DNA of 62,792 nucleotides, counting the filler. It is 6 parts of 6 records of this genome, joined end to end, with 100 filler letters (N's around TTAATTAATTAA, not from the genome) between each part and the next. Parts side by side here need not be neighbours in the genome. Positions count along the whole stretch, not along the records: positions 7,718 to 33,711 come from SRR31156797_6324; 5 more parts are not named here. One strand, 5' to 3'. The position numbers and the translations under genes were made by a program. The notes below the pieces were generated by a model that saw nothing but the letters and a program-made list of their open reading frames with translations, searched no databases and was not told the origin of the DNA. The stretch's first letter is position 1, and each line of letters opens with the position of its first letter. This document shows, piece by piece, positions 9,407 through 18,940 of this stretch.

Positions 9407-11989
9407 TTAGAATTTAAAGTTATAGGTAATAGATGGTACAAAGGTGAACAGATAGGTTTTCTCAGCTTTCATAACATTCGGATTGTCGTCATCTTGAGTA
9501 AAGCTAATGTACCATGGATTTTTTCTGCCATAAGCATTGTAAAGAGAGAAATTCCATTCTCCTTCCCACTTGCGACCAGGTTTCTTTTTACCTTTTAAAG
9601 TTAAAGCTAAATCCAGGCGGTGATTATCGGGCATCCGATATGAATTTCTATCAGAATAGATTTTTATTAAAGATCCCTGATATTCTGCACGTCCAACTGG
9701 ATAAGTTACAGGAGAACCTGTAGAATAAGTGAAGTTAGCTGATATTGTGGTTCTTTTTGTGAGCTTATAACTTAAAGCAGCTTTTATATTGTGCGGTACA
9801 TCATAAGGAGATCGATAAGATTTTCCATTATTAATACCTTCCATTGTTCTTTTTGTTCTTGACCAGGTATAGCCAATCCAACCCTGTAATCGGTTAAAAC
9901 TAAGATTTGTTGTGAATTCAAAACCATAGGCTTCTGCTGATCCTGTCCTCAATTCACCTTCTAAGTGCTTGTTTAATAATAGATCTGCAAAATCTTTAAA
10001 ATCAATGGCATCGTGCATCTTTTTATAATATCCCTCCAATGACATTTCAATGGTGTTGTCGCGGAAATTTCTAAAATAACCAACTGCAAACTGATCGGAT
10101 GTTTGAGGTTTTACATTTGGCGATGCAGGAAACCAAACATCTAAAGGCAAACCACCAGTAGAGTTTTGAGTCAATTGCATGTATTGAGTTGTTCTGGAAT
10201 AACTCATTTTAATCGATGAAGTTGGACCAACTGTATACTTTAATCCAAAACGTGGTTCCCAATTGGTATAGGTATTAAAAATATCTCCCTTTTTGTAGGT
10301 AGTAGAATCAACAACATTATAGTTTTCATCAAAATCATAAACAGTGCCCTTACCAACATTGTTGAACATGCTAAAGCGCAAACCGTATTTTAAGGTTAGG
10401 CGATCGCCAATTTTTTGTTCATTTGAAATGTACAATCCTTCTTCTAAAGCATTGGATTCGTTTACGCGATAGTCTGAAAATAAAGATTGTTCACCCAAAC
10501 CAAAGGCATGACCTGGTTCTAATTTGTGATAGGTAAATATCCCACCAAATTTGATGTTGTTATTGGCATTCAGAAAGTAGTTGAAATCCAGTTTAGCTGA
10601 ATAATCTTCCATATTCGATTGCCATTTGAAAGCATCAGCACCTAATCTGTTCGATAGTTCGTAATCGTATTTACTATATAGAAAGGTCGTATTGGAAAAT
10701 AATTTGTTTGAAAAAAGATGATTCCATCGTAGACTTACTGTTTTATTTCCATAGTTCAATTCATTTTCATTACTCTTGAATTTATCTTTCCCAAAATAAG
10801 TAGAAACAAAAAGTCTGTTTTTATCATTAAAACGATGATTGATTTTAGCATTAACATCGTAGAAGTAAACGGTATTGTCTTTTACATCTTCATCCGAAGA
10901 TAGCTTTAGGAAAAGATCGGCATAGCTTCTTCTACCTGATAGCATAAAAGAAGTTTTTTCATTCTTTCCGATAGGTCCTTCCAAAGTCAATCGTGAAGAT
11001 ACGGTTCCAATGCCACCATTACCACTAAATTTTTTACTGTTTCCATTTTTCATTCTGATGTCAAGAAAAGAGGATAGTCTACCACCAACACTGGCAGGAA
11101 TATCTCCCTTGTAAAGCTTCATATCGCTTAATGCATCGTTATTGAAAATAGAGAAAAAGCCAAGTAAGTGAGAAGCGTTGTAAACAGGAGCTTCGTCGAG
11201 AAGCAAAAGGTTTTGATCCGGATTTCCACCACGAACACTAAAGCCACTTGAGCCTTCGGCAGCAGGTTTAACACCGGGAAGCATTTGGACAGCCTTAATT
11301 AGGTCAACCTCACCCATTAAGGCTGGTAACTTTTTTATGGTTGAAGCAGGTATTTTAACCACACTCATTTCTGCTCTTTCCACATTACTTGCAGCTGCTT
11401 CACCTCGTACAACAACTTCCTGAATCTGTAAATTGTCAGCAGCCAATTCAATATTCATGCTTTTATTGTCGGTTATTTCCAGCATTTGAGTTTGTGTTTT
11501 TGTACCCAAAAAGGAATAACTAATCGTGTAATAACCAGCCGGAATACTTAAGGAGTAGAATCCATAAGGATTGGTGATGGTTCCTTTTTTCAGTTCCTTG
11601 ATGTAACAAGCAGCTCCAATAAGATCTTCTCCATTATTTGCATCTTTAATGTATCCGCTAATGGTGACAGTTTTAGGAGGTATTTTTTTAAAAGCGATTT
11701 GATTGCCAATAATCTTGTACTTAACTTGCAATTGTAAGCTAATTTTATCTAGAATTACACTAAGCTGATAGGATTTTTTACCCAGGTAAACTTTCTTTTT
11801 ACCTAAGTTATTATTCCCAGGATAACTCGCATTTAAACCCGTTTGTTTTTGTATCAATTTCATCAAATCTTCGAATGTGTAATTCTCCTGATTTGTTTTA
11901 ATGACATGTATGTCTTTAGATTGAGACATCACTGTATTCGCCCCAAATAGTAAGAATAGTATTGTAAGGGGAAGAAATATATTTTTCAT
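9407..11989 (-). CDS. TonB-dependent receptor with N-terminal STN-like and CarboxypepD_reg-like domains
   Basis: 'TISGYIKDANNGEDLIGA', plug 'VRGGNPDQNLLLLDEAPVYNASHLLGFFS', C-terminal 'YNFKF'. Confidence 0.92.
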   Translation of the reverse strand: MKNIFLPLTILFLLFGANTVMSQSKDIHVIKTNQENYTFEDLMKLIQKQTGLNASYPGNNNLGKKKVYLGKKSYQLSVILDKISLQLQVKYKIIGNQIAFKKIPPKTVTISGYIKDANNGEDLIGAACYIKELKKGTITNPYGFYSLSIPAGYYTISYSFLGTKTQTQMLEITDNKSMNIELAADNLQIQEVVVRGEAAASNVERAEMSVVKIPASTIKKLPALMGEVDLIKAVQMLPGVKPAAEGSSGFSVRGGNPDQNLLLLDEAPVYNASHLLGFFSIFNNDALSDMKLYKGDIPASVGGRLSSFLDIRMKNGNSKKFSGNGGIGTVSSRLTLEGPIGKNEKTSFMLSGRRSYADLFLKLSSDEDVKDNTVYFYDVNAKINHRFNDKNRLFVSTYFGKDKFKSNENELNYGNKTVSLRWNHLFSNKLFSNTTFLYSKYDYELSNRLGADAFKWQSNMEDYSAKLDFNYFLNANNNIKFGGIFTYHKLEPGHAFGLGEQSLFSDYRVNESNALEEGLYISNEQKIGDRLTLKYGLRFSMFNNVGKGTVYDFDENYNVVDSTTYKKGDIFNTYTNWEPRFGLKYTVGPTSSIKMSYSRTTQYMQLTQNSTGGLPLDVWFPASPNVKPQTSDQFAVGYFRNFRDNTIEMSLEGYYKKMHDAIDFKDFADLLLNKHLEGELRTGSAEAYGFEFTTNLSFNRLQGWIGYTWSRTKRTMEGINNGKSYRSPYDVPHNIKAALSYKLTKRTTISANFTYSTGSPVTYPVGRAEYQGSLIKIYSDRNSYRMPDNHRLDLALTLKGKKKPGRKWEGEWNFSLYNAYGRKNPWYISFTQDDDNPNVMKAEKTYLFTFVPSITYNFKF

Positions 11990-13922: not shown

Positions 13923-14213
13923 TTATCTCTTGTCTTTATATCTTAGAATTTGGCTTCTTAATGCTTCAGTTACCAAATCTGTTGCTTCTTCGAATGTCTT
14001 GCTTTTCTTTTTGGCGAACAATTCGTTACCTGGAACATTCATTTTCACCTCAACCACTTTATTCTCTTTGTTACTTGCCTTGTCAACATTTAAAATTACA
14101 TCGTATGTAGTAACCTTATTCTCCAACTTCTCAAGTTTCTTCAATTTTTGGTTAATGAATGCTTCTAACTTCTCATCTGCCTTAAAACCTACGGATTGCA
14201 TTTTCATGTTCAT
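13923..14213 (-). CDS. hpf: Ribosome hibernation promoting factor (short HPF/RaiA)
   Basis: 'MQSVGFKADEKLEAFI...VPGNELFAKKKSKTFEEATD'. AGGAGG lies 7 nt before ATG 14213. Confidence 0.9.
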   Translation of the reverse strand: MNMKMQSVGFKADEKLEAFINQKLKKLEKLENKVTTYDVILNVDKASNKENKVVEVKMNVPGNELFAKKKSKTFEEATDLVTEALRSQILRYKDKR

Positions 14214-14650
14214 CACAATTCCTCCTATATTTGATATACACACGGGTGTATAAGTTAATATTCTGATAAATATAAACCGGTTTCTTTTCTTGCGCGTATG
14301 TTCAGCTTCGTTAAGCCTTTTCGATTAATCTTTGTACTTTGAAAGTACGCAAAAATTCTAAGTTTAGGAAACCAAACAAGCGTTTTTATTGAAGTTTAAC
14401 AAATATTAATTTTCAAAGTATTCAAAATAAGCCTACTAAAATTTTAAGTTTTTTAAATGTTAAAACTGTTGAGGAATTTTAACACTTGGATATACTGTTT
14501 AATGCCTATGATTACTGCTAAAACAACTGATATTGAGCTATTTTGTTTTACAAAATGATCACTTAGATGCAGATTTCATGATAAATATCAGTTTTTGTTT
14601 GTTTCTGAATTGTTAAATTAAAACATTGTTAAATCTTAAAACAGAAGAAG

Positions 14651-15118
14651 ATGCAAAAAAATGTATTTGATTTGGTTTTAACAGCTGAAGAGCTAACTCA
14701 GATTGATGGAGCTCTTGAAACACTTAACAATGTTTTGCTGCCTAAATTGGAGGTGCTTACCGGGAGTAAGAGAGACCTGCTGATTATGGGCGACAAATCG
14801 ATTGGTTTTGTAGATAAGGCTCATGAAGTAGCCCACCAGGAAACCGATTTGTTAGGTAGTTTTATTGATTTGGAGGCATTCGAACACGATGTGCAGGCAA
14901 TCGACAGTCTTCGTTCTATCAAGTACAAATTGAGTCAGCTGAATTCTGCTGTTGAAGATTCGTTCGCTGTGGCAGGCAGCGAAGCTTACAATGCATCATT
15001 AATGGTGTATAGTTTGATGAAAAATGCTGCCAAAATGGGACATCCCGGAGCTAAGGATATGGTAAGTGAGTTATCTGCCCGATTCCCAGGTCGTCCTAAA
15101 AAACAAACAGACGAATAA
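14651..15118 (+). CDS. Hypothetical 155-aa predominantly alpha-helical protein next to the 21-bp array
   Basis: Clean ORF with A-rich Bacteroidota-type start context and its own terminator. Motifs 'MGDKSIGFVDKA' and 'AGSEAYNASLMVYSLMKNAAKMGHPGA...RFP'. Confidence 0.85.
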   Translation: MQKNVFDLVLTAEELTQIDGALETLNNVLLPKLEVLTGSKRDLLIMGDKSIGFVDKAHEVAHQETDLLGSFIDLEAFEHDVQAIDSLRSIKYKLSQLNSAVEDSFAVAGSEAYNASLMVYSLMKNAAKMGHPGAKDMVSELSARFPGRPKKQTDE

Positions 15119-15144
15119 TACTCGCCTGCTTGATCTCTGTTAAT

Positions 15145-15175
15145 GAAAAGGGTACCACTGCACGGTATCCTTTTC
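15145..15175 (+). terminator. Intrinsic terminator after the 155-aa gene
   Basis: GAAAAGGGTACC-actgcac-GGTATCCTTTTC. Confidence 0.7.
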
Positions 15176-15279
15176 TCTTGTTACAATATCAGTAAAAGCA
15201 GGTGTTTTTCCAAAGATTCTGCCTATTCTTCCATTAACACTACTTCTGTTTATATAAAAGGATAGTACTTTGCCTGATA

Positions 15280-15744
15280 CATTAAAATATTGCTATACTA
15301 ATTATTCTAATGTGCTTGCTAAAGTTCAGTTTGGTAATTGATGAATACTTACTTTCTCTCGCTGATATATATAATATAGACTCTCACTTCAATATTCCTG
15401 TGTCTCATATTAAACATACTATCGATCACCTGCAAATTGTATTGCCCGACTTCCAATTTCCTCTTGGGGATAGCAAATTTTTTATTCGCGATAGTAAAAA
15501 AGATATCAAGAATAGAAAAGTAGATGTCATTCCATACTAAGTTTTCTATTGCTGATAGCAAGTTTGTAGTGGGACAATAGCAAATTGCTATACCTCCACT
15601 GAAATTTTCCTGTCAATGACGACAAAATTGCTATGCCTGCATATCTATTTGCATGTGCCGGATAGGAACAATGTTATTTGGGATAGCAATTTTGTATACG
15701 AAAAGCAGAAAACCCTGATGGGCCAGACTTCGATTCTGATTTAG
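15280..15744. repeat. Degenerate tandem array of about 22 dyad-symmetric 21(22)-bp units
   Basis: Unit starts are 15280+21n to 15511, then 15533, 15554, 15575, 15597, 15618, 15640, 15661, 15682, 15703, 15724. Manual counts: A2 21/22, A8 18/22, T11 17/22, T17 20/22. Consensus near GATAGCAAATTTGCTATC. Confidence 0.8.
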
Positions 15745-15802
15745 CTATTTAATGAACTTTACTTCGCGGGCAATGTCGCTGGTGAGTCTTGCCTGATGTA
15801 AA

Positions 15803-15920
15803 TAATAAGCTAATAAGGTGGTGAATATCCATAATCTTATACTACTAAGTTTTAAACCAATGAGTAAACCTTAGTAGAAAATAGATGCTGATGTGGGTAG
15901 AAGCTTATTAGCTTTAATTA
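15803..15920 (+). other. Long imperfect hairpin (~110 nt), possibly structured RNA or ssDNA
   Basis: AAGCTAATAAG/CTTATTAGCTT (15807-17/15904-14), TATCCATA/TGTGGGTA (G.U pairs), ATCT/AGAT and CTACTAAG/CTTAGTAG are nested. Confidence 0.6.
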
Positions 15921-16574
15921 CTAACCAGCTATAACAGGAGAAAGGAAATGTTGACGATAGTGATCAACTTTAAAATCTTGTACAGGTGTGGAAGAATTTA
16001 TGTATTTGTTTTTTACAGCTAAATATGATTTGGATCTTACGATTCCGGTATTAGCAGTACCTGATGGAGAATACAAAGCTGTTAGTTTAATCGGTCTCCC
16101 AAATATTTCCGACTCCAAAGCAACACCTCTGTTTTGTTTTATTTCTTTGGTTATTCTTAAGCCAAGTATATCTTGATAGAACAATTTAAATGCATTGTTT
16201 TTACCAAATCCACTTGTAAATAAGATTTCATCTATTTGAGATTCTTTAATCAGGTTAATTAAGTTATGATTTAGTTTTAAAGGAATTAGGTCTTTATCTA
16301 AAGATGAGTTATTTGTTCTTTCGCATTCAATAATAGTATCCGAAATCGAGATTTTATTTTCTGATAAAGTCTTTAGAATTCCTTCAACAGAAACTGGAAA
16401 TCCAATGCTATTGTCAAAAACTTCATTTAAGATATTCCATAAGCTCAATTTGTTTCCGTAGAAGAATGGAATTATGAATCTTTCATGATGATGAGGATGA
16501 ATTGTTCCTACAATTAATTTTTTACTTTCCTTATTAATAGGATATTTTCGTAAGTATTGATGTTTTGTAATCAT
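15921..16574 (-). CDS. Uracil-DNA-glycosylase-like (G:T/U mismatch glycosylase-like) protein
   Basis: 'KLIVGTIHP', 'FFYGNKLSLWNIL', 'SSLDKDL', 'ILFTS', 'LYSPSG' match UDG-superfamily motif positions. Confidence 0.65.
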   Translation of the reverse strand: MITKHQYLRKYPINKESKKLIVGTIHPHHHERFIIPFFYGNKLSLWNILNEVFDNSIGFPVSVEGILKTLSENKISISDTIIECERTNNSSLDKDLIPLKLNHNLINLIKESQIDEILFTSGFGKNNAFKLFYQDILGLRITKEIKQNRGVALESEIFGRPIKLTALYSPSGTANTGIVRSKSYLAVKNKYINSSTPVQDFKVDHYRQHFLSPVIAG

Positions 16575-16585
16575 TGTTTTGAGTA

Positions 16586-17542
16586 TTAATTTATCCAAGC
16601 TTGAATTTTGTCAATTAATTGCTTTTTGAATTTGCCTAGATCAGAATAAATAATGTGTGGATAATGATTGGTATCAAAATGTGTTTGCTTAAAATAATCT
16701 TCATGACAAGTATAGATTACGGGTTTCTTTAGCCCGAGAGCATATCCTGCTTCAAAATAAACACCATGTTTTTGTTCCGTAAAATCACCAATTAAGAATT
16801 TACTCTTCTTTATATTACTGATGATAGCATCATTAATGGTAACATCACTATCAACATGAATTTCATCAATTAAAATTGGTTTGTATCCACATTCAATAAT
16901 TGCATCTTTAAGCGTACTTCTTATTGCCTTTACTTCTTCAGAATCATTAAATGACATGGCGATGAAACAGTTTTTGGATTGTGTGCTATTTTCTTGAAGA
17001 TTGATGATGTACTCTAATCCTTTAAATGTGATACAGATATTCATCGCATTTGGTCCAGACATATCAGTGATATCAGTATATGACACAAGGCTCATATTTT
17101 TTAATGTACTTAGATAAAACCAATATTCTTCGTGATTTTTAAGGTATAACTTGTTTAGTTTCAATTCCCATTCCTGAATTGAGTTAGTTTCTAAATTAAT
17201 AACCGCGCCTTCATATTCTTGTTCATTGTATAAATACAATAAAAGGTTATCTAACTTTTCTTTGGGAGTTTTTGGAACTTGGGCTTCACGGATAGCTTTT
17301 TCAAGAACCTTATTATCAAAATAGGACTTTTCGAATGGGAGTATACCGTTAGTAAGTAAGCCTTTTAAGATGTATCGGTTTTCTTCTACAAATTTAGAGT
17401 TTTGATGATCGTAATGACAAATAAATTGTAATCTCTTACCATTGATTACTATTTGATATTCAATAGCATCAGTAGGGCTAGAAATATTAAGTGTTGGTAA
17501 ACCAGTAATAAAACATTTTTCTGGAGCTGGTCTCATTCCCAT
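16586..17542 (-). CDS. Nucleoside 2-deoxyribosyltransferase-like (NDT/TIR-like) domain protein with N-terminal winged-helix-like region
   Basis: 'CFIAMSF...AIIECGYKPILID...INDAIISNIKKSKFLIGDFTEQKHGVYFEAGYALGLKKPVIYTC...HFDTNHY'. Confidence 0.75.
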   Translation of the reverse strand: MGMRPAPEKCFITGLPTLNISSPTDAIEYQIVINGKRLQFICHYDHQNSKFVEENRYILKGLLTNGILPFEKSYFDNKVLEKAIREAQVPKTPKEKLDNLLLYLYNEQEYEGAVINLETNSIQEWELKLNKLYLKNHEEYWFYLSTLKNMSLVSYTDITDMSGPNAMNICITFKGLEYIINLQENSTQSKNCFIAMSFNDSEEVKAIRSTLKDAIIECGYKPILIDEIHVDSDVTINDAIISNIKKSKFLIGDFTEQKHGVYFEAGYALGLKKPVIYTCHEDYFKQTHFDTNHYPHIIYSDLGKFKKQLIDKIQAWIN

Positions 17543-17692: not shown

Positions 17693-18940
17693 ATGGCAAA
17701 AAAGAAGAAAAAAGGCAAAAACAAGCAAGTTATACGTAAACCCTTAACTAGAAAGGAAGGTATTAAGGTGTTTGAAAAAAAGATGTATGAATTTTTAATT
17801 AACAAGTTTCCTCATAAATACGAGCTTCGTTTTACACAAAAAGAAATGAAGTACATGTATATTTATCGGATTGTGGTGCCAAATCCGGTCAAAACCGAAG
17901 GTCAGAATACGAGTACCAATGAACTGAATCGAATTGGGCATATTATTCAAAAGAAATTACGTGAGCCTATGTTGTACCATGATGGAGAATGGTATAGTAC
18001 TATTGAATTGGGATTGTTGTATTGCTATTTTAATAATATGAATAACAATAATACTACACCTCAAAGGCGTATGGAATTGTGGCAGTATATTGGGAGTGCC
18101 AGTAAAATTGAATTAAGTCCTGATCAAATAACTATGCATTATGTAGCTGCATTTAGAAAGACCGTTACAGCTATTTCGAGTGTTAGAAATATGATTTATA
18201 GCTTGGATTTGCGTGAAACATATTGTGATCCAAATAATCCTGCATTAGAATTTGGTCATCGGTTGGGCGTTGGATATGCAAGTAAAAAATCAATTGATAT
18301 TAATGGGAATTCCAGATTGGTTTATCGATTTGTTTTGCCACGCATACATAATGAGCCTTGGTATGGGCAAATGTATGCTTCTGACTTAAAAGAGGTGTAT
18401 AGCGGAAATAAGAAAATGCTGGATATATATATTCAATCTCATGCCCTGGAACGCTTAAGGGAAAGGTTAGACTTGTTGGATGAAGAAGCTATCAACTATG
18501 CCATATACGAAAATTTTGATGCACTTCAATTCACTATCTTAAGTAACGGTTACATCTTAATTACAATTAAATTGTTTCAATGCAAAGTAGGTTACTTTAT
18601 TGCCAATATTATTAAGGATGATTTTGTAATTCGAACCTTCCTGTTTATTACCCATGCTACCAGTCCGGAAGGAGATAAACTAAAAGAGATCTGTGGATTG
18701 GGAAGAAATGATGTGCCTTACTGGAAGATAGATCGATTGAGTACTTTTATGAATGTGGATGCAGAACAATACCCTAAATTATCTGCCATGTTCGAAGAGG
18801 CGGGTTGTGGCGATTTGTTCAAACTGCACAACGAAAAGTTCTCGGTAGAAGCTATGCAAACTGCCAATCTCGATGGGTTAAGAGACTACATCAAAAGTGG
18901 AAAGCAGGAGATGTCCGATGAGTTGCTGGAATCGAGTTGA
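17693..18940 (+). CDS. Hypothetical protein (415 aa, basic N-terminus)
   Basis: Long ORF with AAAGGAGG upstream. No recognisable domain. Confidence 0.75.
   Translation: MAKKKKKGKNKQVIRKPLTRKEGIKVFEKKMYEFLINKFPHKYELRFTQKEMKYMYIYRIVVPNPVKTEGQNTSTNELNRIGHIIQKKLREPMLYHDGEWYSTIELGLLYCYFNNMNNNNTTPQRRMELWQYIGSASKIELSPDQITMHYVAAFRKTVTAISSVRNMIYSLDLRETYCDPNNPALEFGHRLGVGYASKKSIDINGNSRLVYRFVLPRIHNEPWYGQMYASDLKEVYSGNKKMLDIYIQSHALERLRERLDLLDEEAINYAIYENFDALQFTILSNGYILITIKLFQCKVGYFIANIIKDDFVIRTFLFITHATSPEGDKLKEICGLGRNDVPYWKIDRLSTFMNVDAEQYPKLSAMFEEAGCGDLFKLHNEKFSVEAMQTANLDGLRDYIKSGKQEMSDELLESS

Follow-up and report, generated by a model that had tools for sequence, protein, structure and literature searches.

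The locus and its 21-bp array

The window analysed here, a stretch of 62,792 nucleotides joined from parts of six records of one genome, carries a degenerate tandem array of dyad-symmetric units next to the gene that we call p155. The locus has a chromosomal setting, with TonB receptor, ECF sigma/anti-sigma, hpf, MatE and PUL genes. The features of the locus are as follows.

14651..15118, plus strand: p155, a gene that travels with the array; its product of 155 aa is all-helical and acidic and belongs to an unnamed family
15145..15175, no strand assigned: terminator-like 12-pair hairpin with T-rich tails on both strands, between p155 and the array
15281..15745, no strand assigned: degenerate array of 22 units of 20-22 bp, each a dyad of ~16 bp (ATAGCAA-N2-TTGCTAT type) plus a linker of ~5 bp
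15428..15703, no strand assigned: array core of 13 units, the best-kept part, aligning unit for unit and without gaps with the closest relative (locus L001)
15745..15790, minus strand: 3'-terminal remnant of an HNH gene in convergent orientation; the gene is PDC-M62B / PtuB-like in relatives
15921..17542, minus strand: pair of variable island genes that separate the array from p415, encoding proteins of 225 and 318 aa
17693..18940, plus strand: p415, encoding a conserved 415-aa basic protein that flanks this orthologous locus

The p155 gene stands unaccompanied between hpf and the array. The terminator-like hairpin behind it recurs in the related loci L001-L005, and the segment 15119-15180 is 92% identical between the window and L001. 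At the other end of the array there is a weak terminator-like hairpin on the minus strand (15711-15724), followed by the HNH remnant, which is 80% identical to L001 over 15751-15790 before homology stops near 15790. The HNH gene is intact in L004 (5250-6155), as it is in L002 and L005. The right edge of the array is a junction at which the PDC-M62-like ATPase and HNH pair found in L002, L004 and L005 has been replaced by other genes, leaving the 45-bp remnant, and the module in the window borders a swappable defence-gene island. The 225-aa island protein has a weak deoxyinosine/uracil-glycosylase-like match (TIGR04274, E=2.7e-4, below the family cutoff), and the 318-aa protein carries a TIR / nucleoside-deoxyribosyltransferase-like domain (PADLOC TIR effector, E=1e-8; phrog_16139, E=5e-29). 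By tblastn, p415 is present in L001, L002, L004 and L006-L010, with one or two matches per genome, and is not found within ~8 kb of 11 paralogue loci. It has no Pfam match, and its AF2 model (pLDDT 81) has no Foldseek match at E<=0.001. An iteron-binding Rep was considered for p415, one relative being labelled 'Initiator Rep protein domain' in UniRef; neither Pfam nor Foldseek supports the label and the protein is absent near 11 paralogous modules, and the idea was rejected.

How regular is the array? Judging from the letters alone, the first-pass annotation had described about 22 palindromic 21-nt units, no two of them identical, and both the period and the units were recovered here. In 15280-15744 the autocorrelation is highest at lag 21 (z=6.22 relative to 500 dinucleotide shuffles, in which the best lag has a 95th percentile of 3.19), with harmonics at lag 42/43 (3.6) and lag 63/64 (3.5/3.1) and an anticorrelation at lag 10 (z=-3.7); the lag-21 score is 6.4 for 15200-15800 and 5.95 for 15440-15710. 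Similarly, EM/Viterbi segmentation into units of 20-22 nt scores 209.9 bits, as compared with a mean of 56.3 bits (sd 10.2, maximum 84.2) in 100 shuffles, while segmentation at periods of 18, 19, 20, 22, 23 or 24 reaches just 29.7-58.8 bits. The 21-bp period of the window array is real and is specifically 21. Since 21 bp is two turns of B-DNA, sites spaced in this way all face the same side of the duplex.

The 22 units start between 15281 and 15725, all differ, and have an average pairwise identity of 0.42. Their consensus is ATAgCAAaaTTGtTAT followed by a 5-nt linker rich in G+C. Four positions are nearly fixed: A1 in 22, A7 in 18, T10 in 16 and T16 in 20 of the 22 units. Our numbering begins one base later than the cut of the first-pass annotation, which had counted the same dyad partners as A2 (21/22), A8 (18/22), T11 (17/22) and T17 (20/22). 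Likewise, the +1 slips that it placed at 15532, 15596 and 15639 correspond to 22-nt units beginning at 15512, 15576 and 15619; the segmentation finds an extra 20/22-nt pair at 15281/15301. The clearest units fall within 15428-15703, and the left third of the array (15281-15427) is far weaker. Tandem Repeats Finder called no repeat in 14500-16500, because the units are too diverged.

The array is not a repeat within a protein, as had been argued from its slips. Identity by phase modulo 3 is 77/92, 71/92 and 69/92, with no codon pattern of the kind expected of a coding heptad repeat; the longest stop-free stretch covers 87 of 155 codons, three +1 slips interrupt the frame, three sister arrays have a period of 22 bp, and substitutions relative to L001 track the dyad and not codon position. 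Open frames do occur in 14 of 33 array cores, as expected of a period divisible by 3.

Compared with L001, the core is 86% identical over the dyad arms and 73% over their centre, falling to 61% over the linker. At the eight most informative phases 97 of 106 bases are identical, versus 120 of 170 elsewhere (p=2e-5), and for A/T bases alone the counts are 85/88 versus 63/91. The conserved bases are specific A/T positions; the inner G-C positions of the dyad vary without compensation. Linker identity is close to the 56% (14/25) at fourfold-degenerate sites of the neighbouring hpf, and the fourfold sites of p155 are 84% identical (48/57) versus 80% for the array core, about as conserved as the array itself, so that the neutral baseline is uncertain. 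The left third of the array has changed at an approximately neutral rate with indels (62% identity, 35 gap columns). Phase-dependent conservation was replicated in two of five further pairs, L002/L003 (p=7e-5, from a partly circular alignment with 100 gap columns) and L030/L033 (p=0.012), and was absent in L007/L009, L004/L005 and L007/L008.

The p155 family and its arrays

The first-pass annotation had suggested looking for 21-bp arrays beside homologs of the 14651-15118 protein, and such arrays are there. A periodic array (20-23 bp) lies within 900 bp of 33 of 57 non-redundant p155-family genes, at a threshold passed by 0.66% of 8,783 background windows at any lag of 14-30. The period is 21 bp in 30 of the linked arrays and 22 bp in three; the array lies 3' of the gene in 27 cases, 5' in five (one subfamily has it there) and on both sides in one. 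Where the array is 3' of the gene (28 loci), a terminator hairpin lies between the two in at least 18. No array is detectable at 21 of the 57 genes, and three more have flanks too short to judge; conversely, at least two arrays have no adjoining family member (L067, L071). The family is carried by 29 of 401 genomes in the phylum sample, Bacteroidota genomes contain up to six diverged gene-and-array modules each, and the linkage holds for paralogues inside one genome as well as over the phylum sample. Full-text searches of main articles found no description of this pairing.

Unit sequence varies by lineage, and the paralogous arrays of one genome differ in theirs; the architecture, a short dyad plus filler to 21 bp, is constant. 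Lag identity spans 0.92-0.97 in L054 and L065, where the whole unit is almost invariant, down to 0.42-0.45 in the window, L003 and L004. One unit is shared by three arrays in genome G172, two of them with duplicated flanking genes, and by two arrays in G178. From Marinifilum/Labilibaculum to Carboxylicivirga, where protein identity is 55-58%, the array is kept beside orthologues with the related dyad xAGmAA..TTkCTx.

Within 4.5 kb of modules, restriction-modification or candidate defence genes are found in L065, L068, L028 and L033, and PADLOC defence-family matches in these four and in L002, L004 and L005, the last three being one orthologous locus. The majority of the 125 module neighbours scanned with PADLOC had no match, and the 'mad3/mad8' matches among them are generic ABC ATPases. 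A general claim of linkage to defence islands was dropped, the independent cases being too few.

What kind of protein is p155? The family comprises 3,573 representative clusters (50% identity) at E<=1e-3, with no relative among 72,556 plasmid and 50,697 phage records, and its ESM Atlas matches are solely unnamed Bacteroidota clusters. The window protein has no match in Pfam, PHROG, PADLOC or NCBIfam, and profile searches against the PDB returned nothing under E 0.46. Its AF2 model (pLDDT 90.8) includes a 55-residue helix and finds no matching fold: the best Foldseek hit has E 1.2, and the best Z in VIA wide is 5.9, to generic helical hairpins. Three matches to fused forms were uninformative. 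The protein is acidic (pI 4.98; 16 K+R versus 24 D+E) with a short basic tail, RFPGRPKK. We predict that p155 forms a symmetric dimer: ipSAE for the modelled homodimer is 0.69 versus 0.00 for the best of three controls, a mark reached by 21 of 30 proteins solved as one-chain pairs and by none of the 23 solved as single chains. The dimer runs agree in at least 94% of contacts, with partner pLDDT of at least 81; 21:21, 80:112 and 91:101 are among the predicted two-fold contacts, and the interface takes in residues 5-10.

In our own reading, the N-terminal pattern NxFxLxLTxEE (NRISIEIPxxxL in relatives) resembles the strand-helix of ribbon-helix-helix (RHH) proteins; the outward-facing residues of the putative strand would be V, D and V in the window protein. 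RHH profiles matched none of 12 N-terminal 50-aa pieces of the family at E<=10, and the RHH fold is absent from the fold searches. The acidity of p155, and the lack of any relative in Pfam, NCBIfam or the PDB and of any matching fold, we count against it as the binder of the array.

Comparison with known arrays

Which described elements does the module resemble? Like CRISPR, TIGR and other guide-RNA arrays, it has a periodic non-coding array adjoining the gene of a specific protein. The first-pass annotation had nonetheless excluded a CRISPR array, and rightly so: there is no constant direct repeat alternating with unique spacers, the units abut, and their mean identity is 0.42. No Cas family was found among the scanned neighbours in the window, and a Cas13b-like match lies near one paralogous module only (L033). 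Guide-RNA arrays in general differ in combining a constant repeat with variable spacers; here the whole unit is near-invariant in L054 and L065 and RNA signals are missing. In the portion of a survey of guide-RNA arrays, TIGR and VIPR included, that we drew on (bioRxiv 10.64898/2026.10.21.760802), the periods are 60-79, 18 and 5 nt, and not 21.

There are likenesses to protein-bound DNA arrays too, each with differences. Plasmid centromeres (parC/ParR of pSK41 and R1, the heptad arrays of omega protein, sopC/SopB of F) consist of short tandem repeats at integral helical spacing; the repeats are ~20 bp in pSK41 parC, and the 43-bp units of sopC each contain a 16-bp inverted repeat. Such an array adjoins the gene of a small dimeric binding protein, which polymerises cooperatively on one face of the DNA. 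The window-type array likewise adjoins the gene of a small predicted dimer. Unlike plasmid centromeres, the modules are chromosomal, number up to six per genome and have far more degenerate units; no ParM, ParA or TubZ NTPase gene occurs among the p155 neighbours, and p155 has no detectable RHH, HTH or ParB domain.

Theta-plasmid iterons (R6K, RK2, F, pPS10) have units of 17-22 bp at ~22-bp spacing, two helical turns, beside the gene of their binding protein, and the window array, with its 21-bp period beside a small protein gene, is similar. Iterons are direct repeats, well conserved within an origin; the units here are dyad-symmetric and degenerate, the context does not look like a replicon, and neither p155 nor p415 matches a Rep initiator family. 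The 21-bp operators of the Arc/Mnt type are bound by two ribbon-helix-helix dimers on one face and have TAG/CTA-type half-sites about one turn apart. The window units, too, are 21-bp dyads with half-sites of this type. Arc/Mnt operators are single and lie in promoters, as opposed to arrays of 10-25 units, and no search here supports RHH membership of p155. DnaA boxes and AT-hook sites were considered by eye and dropped, since the motif changes between genera and the high-GC array of L042 has no A/T-rich centre.

Finally, Bacteroidota have a precedent for spacer-less intergenic repeats in the BrickBuilt minisatellite MITE of Porphyromonas gingivalis. As described in the parts of the report used here (PMC4596501), it has 23-nt units in 1 to ~23 imperfect copies, flanked by a leader and a tail, at 19 intergenic places, and frequent stops exclude coding; one unit sequence serves all 19 loci, and Table 1 gives no associated gene family. 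On that description BrickBuilt and the present arrays share their phylum, their intergenic location and imperfect abutting units of about two helical turns. They differ in that each of our arrays has its own unit and a tie to a p155-family gene, in the period (21-22 instead of 23), and in that the window-type motif has no dispersed copies in related genomes.

Candidate roles for the array

We tentatively propose, with somewhat less than even confidence, that the array serves a dimeric protein, probably p155, as a phased platform made up of operator-like sites. According to this proposal, ~13-22 operator-like sites would stand in a row at the DNA level, each a 16-bp palindrome (ATAGCAA-N2-TTGCTAT type) with a 5-bp linker. 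A symmetric dimeric protein, most likely the product of the adjacent gene, would bind each dyad and polymerise along the array into a nucleoprotein filament or wrapped complex, while the terminator-like hairpins on both sides would exclude RNA polymerase. Gene and array would be co-inherited as a module, each copy with its own unit sequence, and the complex may organise or insulate the chromosome, in the manner of a centromere or a boundary. We count in favour of the platform the specific 21-bp period, the linkage of gene and array, the architecture that outlasts changes of unit sequence and the position-specific conservation relative to L001, and also that ATAGMAANNTTKCTRT is no commoner than a reversed control outside the array in two relatives: counts of this type of motif versus control are 28+24 versus 28+25 in G001 and 19+18 versus 24+27 in G003, with clusters in the array only. 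The first-pass annotation had offered a platform for a polymerising dimeric DNA-binding protein as one of two readings; the dyad symmetry, the missing RNA-type signals and the predicted dimer favour it over the other. The p155 protein is itself acidic and has no recognised DNA-binding domain. Family genes without arrays (21/57), orphan arrays, and phase-dependent conservation replicated in just two of five pairs are counted against the platform reading.

Could the array act as RNA instead? Every unit is able to form a short hairpin, and a transcript with ~20 of them might be a scaffold or a sponge for RNA-binding proteins, p155 or another, or might be processed into short RNAs, the second reading of the first-pass annotation. 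We consider this improbable, and nothing seen here supports processing into ~21-nt RNAs. Within-unit complementarity is not above that of column-shuffled controls in 14 arrays (z -2.1 to +1.2) or in 13 more (mean z -0.1), so that covariation is absent from all 27; G·T-type and A·C-type mismatches are about equally frequent (72 versus 65); and A/T composition is not skewed with respect to the gene strand (13 of 28 arrays positive, p=0.65). In favour of RNA, the units of L052 have G·T wobbles on the gene strand only. The absence of hairpin covariation, G·U asymmetry and strand skew favours a DNA-level site over RNA. In the same direction point the conservation of specific A/T positions and not of pairs, an asymmetric sub-element inverted between units of L042, and cores such as TTAAAGCTTTAA that would give very weak RNA stems. 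Rfam searches of 14000-17000 at E<=10 gave chance-level matches only, none at gathering score (the best, GibS, scores 25.6 bits where 115 are required, and is the terminator hairpin), and none was found in L066 at gathering thresholds; the RNA fold of the region past the L002 array is not significant (z=-1.3). The terminator hairpin that parts gene from array in most 3' loci argues against co-transcription there, which would be allowed in L038, L043 and L046, where a terminator-like GGGGTACTTCnGAAGT... hairpin follows the array and none precedes it. The GGGGTACTTCnGAAGT... motif, a shared tail of these three arrays, is also found at the distal end of the array in L071 and in part in L072, and is not a dispersed repeat. 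Contigs of relatives from four RNA libraries all cover part of p155 (X15 covers 14642-15150). One of them, X14, includes a 554-nt contig with array-like units that matches 15577-15615 only and may reflect DNA carry-over; X12, X15 and X17 have no array contig. Such contigs reveal neither starts, ends, strand nor level, and an uncovered part is uninformative, so that the libraries weigh on neither side. The Bacteroidetes -7 promoter motif is TAnnTTTG. It is absent from both strands of 14300-16000, even upstream of p155, which makes the promoter test uninformative, and a sigma-70 scan is at chance level (5 found versus 6.4 expected).

Two further explanations take p155 out of the role of binder. 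The array may be a phased platform for another factor (a host transcription factor, nucleoid protein or recombinase) or act by DNA structure alone, as a boundary, insulator or recombination-prone edge of the variable island, with p155 a linked passenger or itself regulated by the array. All DNA-level evidence applies to this, as do the acidity of p155 and its want of a known DNA-binding domain, the orphan arrays, the 5' arrays of one subfamily, which resemble an upstream regulatory region, the ATPase and HNH exchange junction with its 45-bp remnant, and the restriction-modification or candidate defence genes near L065, L068, L028 and L033. We nevertheless think it unlikely: a general host factor needs one conserved motif, yet paralogous arrays of one genome differ; two related genomes show no enrichment of the window-type motif elsewhere; a small HTH gene stands upstream of p155 in two loci only (L007, L029); and linkage of 33 of 57 genes to arrays is hard to explain if the protein is irrelevant. 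A similarly low probability attaches to the array being a functionless, degenerating minisatellite, born through slippage where convergent terminators enclose a transcription-free gap, and carried along with p155, possibly within a mobile or duplicating cassette resembling BrickBuilt, which is the Bacteroidota precedent in the parts of PMC4596501 cited above. The range from near-perfect arrays (L054, L065) to barely periodic ones recalls young and old satellites, and the near-neutral left third of the window array with its indels, the units common to several arrays in G172 and G178, and three of six orthologue pairs without phase-dependent constraint are all in keeping with it. However, slippage alone does not predict a period of 21-22 bp held in 33 arrays with unrelated units, an array with a related dyad persists from Marinifilum/Labilibaculum to Carboxylicivirga, dyad positions in the closest pair are 92% conserved versus 71% for the rest, and the units, unlike those of BrickBuilt, vary from locus to locus within a genome and go with a single gene family. 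Even with arrays as inert satellites, so tight a linkage to one gene family needs explaining.

To return to the platform of operator-like sites bound by a dimer, a wider and more doubtful proposal is that such modules form a new class in Bacteroidota chromosomes: the gene of a p155-family dimer plus a private array of 10-25 dyad sites at two-turn spacing, the protein polymerising on the array into a nucleoprotein body. This would be a chromosomal analogue of plasmid centromere complexes without a dedicated NTPase, and such a body might serve as anchor, insulator or boundary, for instance along the border of a swappable defence island, as in the window. If this is true, a large unannotated protein family (3,573 clusters) gains a partner and a testable activity, and Bacteroidota chromosomes would hold several self-contained modules of protein and DNA array, a type so far familiar mainly from the centromeres and origins of plasmids. 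The position of the locus at a junction where defence systems were exchanged means that the module may mark or help shape variable islands, and the strictness with which unrelated unit sequences keep to a period of 21-22 bp suggests a geometric constraint.

Dyad units beyond the p155 gene

What kind of element is the array at positions 15281-15745, beside the gene for the 155-residue protein p155? By sequence the window resembles a Marinifilaceae chromosome: p155 is 95% identical to a protein from a Labilibaculum MAG and 81-83% identical to proteins of Marinifilum fragile and Ancylomarina longa, and p415, a 415-residue protein encoded farther along, has 99% identity to a protein from Marinifilum sp. 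Minus-strand genes for a TonB-dependent receptor, a FecR-type anti-sigma factor and an ECF sigma factor come before hpf, and a MatE transporter gene follows p415. The features between are as follows.

13923-14243, minus strand: hpf
14651-15118, plus strand: p155
15145-15175: 12-pair hairpin with T-rich tails on both strands, between p155 and the array
15281-15745: array of 22 degenerate dyad units
15745-15790: 45-bp remnant of a convergent HNH gene (3' end), after the array
15921-17542, minus strand: two unrelated island genes
17693-18940, plus strand: p415

A second terminator-like hairpin (13 pairs, then TTTTTT; 15104-15132, minus strand) overlaps the last codons of p155, and leftward transcription would therefore meet two terminators.

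The first-pass annotation had divided this region into about 22 palindromic 21-bp units with four nearly fixed dyad positions and three +1 slips. The periodicity is confirmed. Over 15280-15744 the lag-21 autocorrelation reaches z=6.2 against 500 dinucleotide shuffles, whose best-lag 95th percentile is 3.2, with harmonics at lags 42/43 and 63/64 and anticorrelation at lag 10. Segmentation into units of 20-22 nt yields 209.9 bits, compared with 56.3±10.2 (maximum 84.2) in 100 shuffles, and the rival periods 18-20 and 22-24 yield just 30-59 bits. Re-segmentation recovered the three slips and closely reproduced the 22 units and their near-fixed positions (22/22, 18/22, 16/22 and 20/22). In consensus a unit reads ATAgCAAaaTTGtTAT, then a G+C-rich linker of 5 nt, and most of the periodic signal is carried by the right-hand 13 units (15428-15703). 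Conserved bases at unit positions 1, 6-7, 10-11 and 16 form two half-sites about 9 bp apart, a spacing that would fit a dimer touching successive major grooves.

The array is non-coding, and the earlier argument against a protein repeat is upheld. The longest stop-free run covers 87 of 155 codons, reading frames are broken because of the +1 slips, identity to the closest relative is flat by phase mod 3 (77/92, 71/92 and 69/92), and the 22-bp period of three sister arrays also counts against coding. Three short ORFs within the array match no family above threshold, the sole match being Spectrin_2 at E=0.023, under the cutoff. One open frame is present in 14 of 33 array cores; since any 21-nt period gives an open frame by construction, these cores are no evidence for coding.

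Linkage of arrays to the p155 family

The first-pass annotation had suggested looking for 21-bp periodicity beside p155 homologues. An array of 20-23-bp period, defined by an autocorrelation of at least 0.42 in a 250-nt window, lies within 900 bp of 33 of the 57 non-redundant family gene copies, against 0.66% of 8,783 background windows, counting any lag between 14 and 30. By the same criterion 21 copies lack an array, and another 3 have flanks too short to judge. The array is 3' of the gene in 27 cases, 5' in 5 and on both sides in 1; its period is 21 in 30 cases and 22 in 3, and it comprises about 6-24 units (median 12). Around close p155 relatives (13 loci of about 8 kb; L numbers denote loci in related genomes), the strongest lag-21 window falls just 3' of the gene in nine, where the contrast scores are 4.8 or higher. 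The post-gene window is weaker (3.3-4.0) at L006, L011 and L013, and the contig of L012 stops 275 bp past the p155 relative. Arrays of 21- or 22-bp period lie 3' of the gene even in paralogues as distant as E=1e-16 to 1e-50, and five related genomes hold 4, 6, 5, 1 and 1 family members.

The family was found in 29 of 401 sampled Bacteroidota genomes and comprises 3,573 representative clusters at E<=1e-3. It is unnamed: none of 45 sampled members matches Pfam above cutoff, searches of NCBIfam, PHROG and PADLOC gave no match, and the plasmid and phage collections searched contain no relatives. Near-perfect arrays in the phylum sample include L040, L042 (67% G+C), L052 (22 bp) and L054. Across these lineages the design is constant and the unit sequence lineage-specific, a short dyad being padded to 21 or 22 bp.

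Unit dyads by lineage
Marinifilaceae: ATAGCAA..TTGCTAT
Carboxylicivirga: CCAGAAnnTTCTGG
Further lineage examples: TTGACTnCAGTC; TGAACCAGTTCA; AGATnCATCT; TTAAAGCTTTAA; GTAssTTCsGAAssTAC

The exception is L040, where the dyad is not obvious. Of the 28 loci whose array is 3' of the gene, at least 18 have a terminator-like hairpin separating it from the stop codon, and by eye the hairpin is placed alike in the window, L007 and L009. The far end is closed by a related G-rich hairpin motif around GGGGTACTTCnGAAGT at L038 (~2695-2740), L043 (~1366-1400), L046 (~2295-2345) and L071 (~1150-1200), and partly at L072; the arrays that share it have unrelated unit sequences. Tested as a dispersed repeat, the motif proved not to be one. 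At L028 its perfect palindromic form, with a T-run, directly follows the gene like an intrinsic terminator.

Two arrays have no adjacent family gene (L067, 5050-5550, genome G172; L071, 1100-1400, genome G178), and their units match a unit of a gene-linked array elsewhere in their own genome. The distant paralogues at L032, L035 and L029, with no detectable array, each come last behind genes for ABC exporters of the C39-peptidase type, recognised from N-terminal sequences, with two further genes intervening at L032 and L035; their context differs from that of the array-linked copies.

Recognition of the array and its candidate binder

Are the units under selection, or is the array an inert minisatellite co-inherited with the gene, as we consider unlikely? 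The window and its closest relative, L001, align unit for unit and gap-free over 15427-15705. There 97/106 positions match at the eight most informative phases and 120/170 at the remaining ones (p=2e-5); for A/T bases alone the matches are 85/88 versus 63/91 (p=7e-7). The unit arms agree at 86% of positions, the centre at 73% and the linker at 61%. The neutral baseline for these identities is uncertain, since hpf matches at 56% of its 4-fold sites (14/25) and p155 at 84% (48/57). Identity drops to 62% in the left third of the array, where the alignment has 35 gap columns. Five other pairs gave a mixed outcome: the phase effect is seen in L002/L003 (p=7e-5, in a gapped alignment partly guided by the shared motif) and L030/L033 (p=0.012), with no difference in L007/L009, L004/L005 and L007/L008. 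We read the dyad positions as being under real but uneven constraint.

The first-pass annotation had offered two interpretations, a phased platform for a polymerising dimeric DNA-binding protein and a transcribed array processed into short RNAs. Dyad-partner complementarity within units never exceeds column consensus in 14 arrays (z -2.1 to +1.2), and averages z -0.1 in 13 further arrays, where mismatches of the G·T and A·C types are in balance (72 to 65); in the earlier 14-array set they stand at 197 to 139, with the shuffles skewed too. Taken along the gene strand, the arrays show no A/T skew (13/28 positive, p=0.65) and a marginal G/C skew (18/28, p=0.046). At L042 an asymmetric 11-bp sub-element occurs in both orientations inside one array. 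Because complementarity is not in excess, mismatches are balanced, A/T skew is absent, the L042 element is inverted and the half-sites are spaced as they are, sequence comparison favours recognition as double-stranded DNA. The DNA-level platform is to that extent supported over the RNA option, and function as RNA appears improbable to us; that p155 is the binder we infer mainly from genetic linkage.

We propose, tentatively, that p155 dimers would bind the array as a phased DNA platform. The AF2 model of p155 is all-helical (pLDDT 90.8), with a 55-residue helix at residues 74-128, and no fold or sequence relatives were found among solved structures. A homodimer is predicted with an ipSAE of 0.69, versus 0.00 for the best of three controls; among proteins of solved structure, 21 of 30 same-chain pairs attain this mark, as against 0 of 23 single chains. 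Dimer runs show at least 94% contact agreement and partner pLDDT of at least 81, and the modelled contacts 21:21, 80:112 and 91:101 imply antiparallel, intertwined chains related by a two-fold axis, a symmetry that would suit dyad sites. Residues 5-10 lie inside the predicted interface. Family N-termini (NRISIEIPxxxL in relatives, NVFDLVLTAEEL in the window) remind us of the strand-helix start of ribbon-helix-helix proteins, a likeness with no HMM support, and p155 is an acidic protein, of pI 5.0, that has just a short basic tail. That the platform serves another factor, or is structural, seems to us a doubtful alternative.

Plasmid centromere arrays (parC/ParR, the omega heptads, sopC/SopB) and iterons likewise consist of short repeats, spaced by whole helical turns and next to the gene of their binder. 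The array and p155 share this design, with a candidate binder gene beside the repeats, but lack the partner NTPase, Rep initiator and replicon context of the plasmid systems. The array may be a variant of such phased protein-binding arrays, and there is a fair chance that the p155 module is a distinct chromosomal system. Among published Bacteroidota arrays the nearest that we found is the BrickBuilt minisatellite MITE, which has 23-nt units, one unit genome-wide and no linked gene (PMC4596501); the p155 module differs by its linked gene and locus-specific units. The matches listed from a 2026 survey of periodic intergenic arrays give periods of 60-79, 18, 5 and 10 nt, with 96.1% of clusters at 60-79, 18 and 5 nt, and among them mention no 21-nt class (bioRxiv 10.64898/2026.10.21.760802). 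A literature search of article full texts found no description of the gene-array pairing.

Genes at the array edge

At L002, L004 and L005 a convergent ATPase-HNH pair follows the array, with p415 beyond it; PADLOC matches the pair to the candidate system PDC-M62, with a weaker match to PtuA/PtuB. The same position in the window holds a TIR/nucleoside-deoxyribosyltransferase-like gene and a weakly deoxyinosine-glycosylase-like gene, and the 45 bp from the end of the PDC-M62B/PtuB-like HNH gene are all that is left of the pair. At this edge of the array one defence-type system seems to have given way to another. In Carboxylicivirga the array directly abuts p415, of which L007 has two tandem copies.

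The p415 protein, specific to the window-type orthologous locus, is conserved and basic (pI 8.9), with a Lys-rich N-terminus, an AF2 model at pLDDT 81 and invariant residues Q248, H250, R254, R258 and D260. It has no Pfam family or fold assignment; a sub-domain weakly resembles RelE/ParE/YoeB-type folds (probability 0.5-0.7, TM ~0.5 on target). The UniRef label 'Initiator Rep protein domain' on one relative was not reproduced.

Other family loci have their own neighbours. In G172 a 401-bp tandem repeat (eight copies, 98% identity; L066, 4631-7850) fills the 3.6 kb between two convergent p155-family genes, near a 14-bp repeat of 8.8 copies at 9686-9808. At L068 of the same genome (3936-9602), genes for a cytosine methyltransferase and a putative restriction enzyme, together with two small genes, lie between two convergent family genes, with the 21-bp array outside the first p155 gene. 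At L033 (2507-5845, genome G003) a gene about 2 kb from a p155-paralogue array encodes a protein of 1,112 residues, the N-terminal 240 of which match Cas13b models (E=7e-17).
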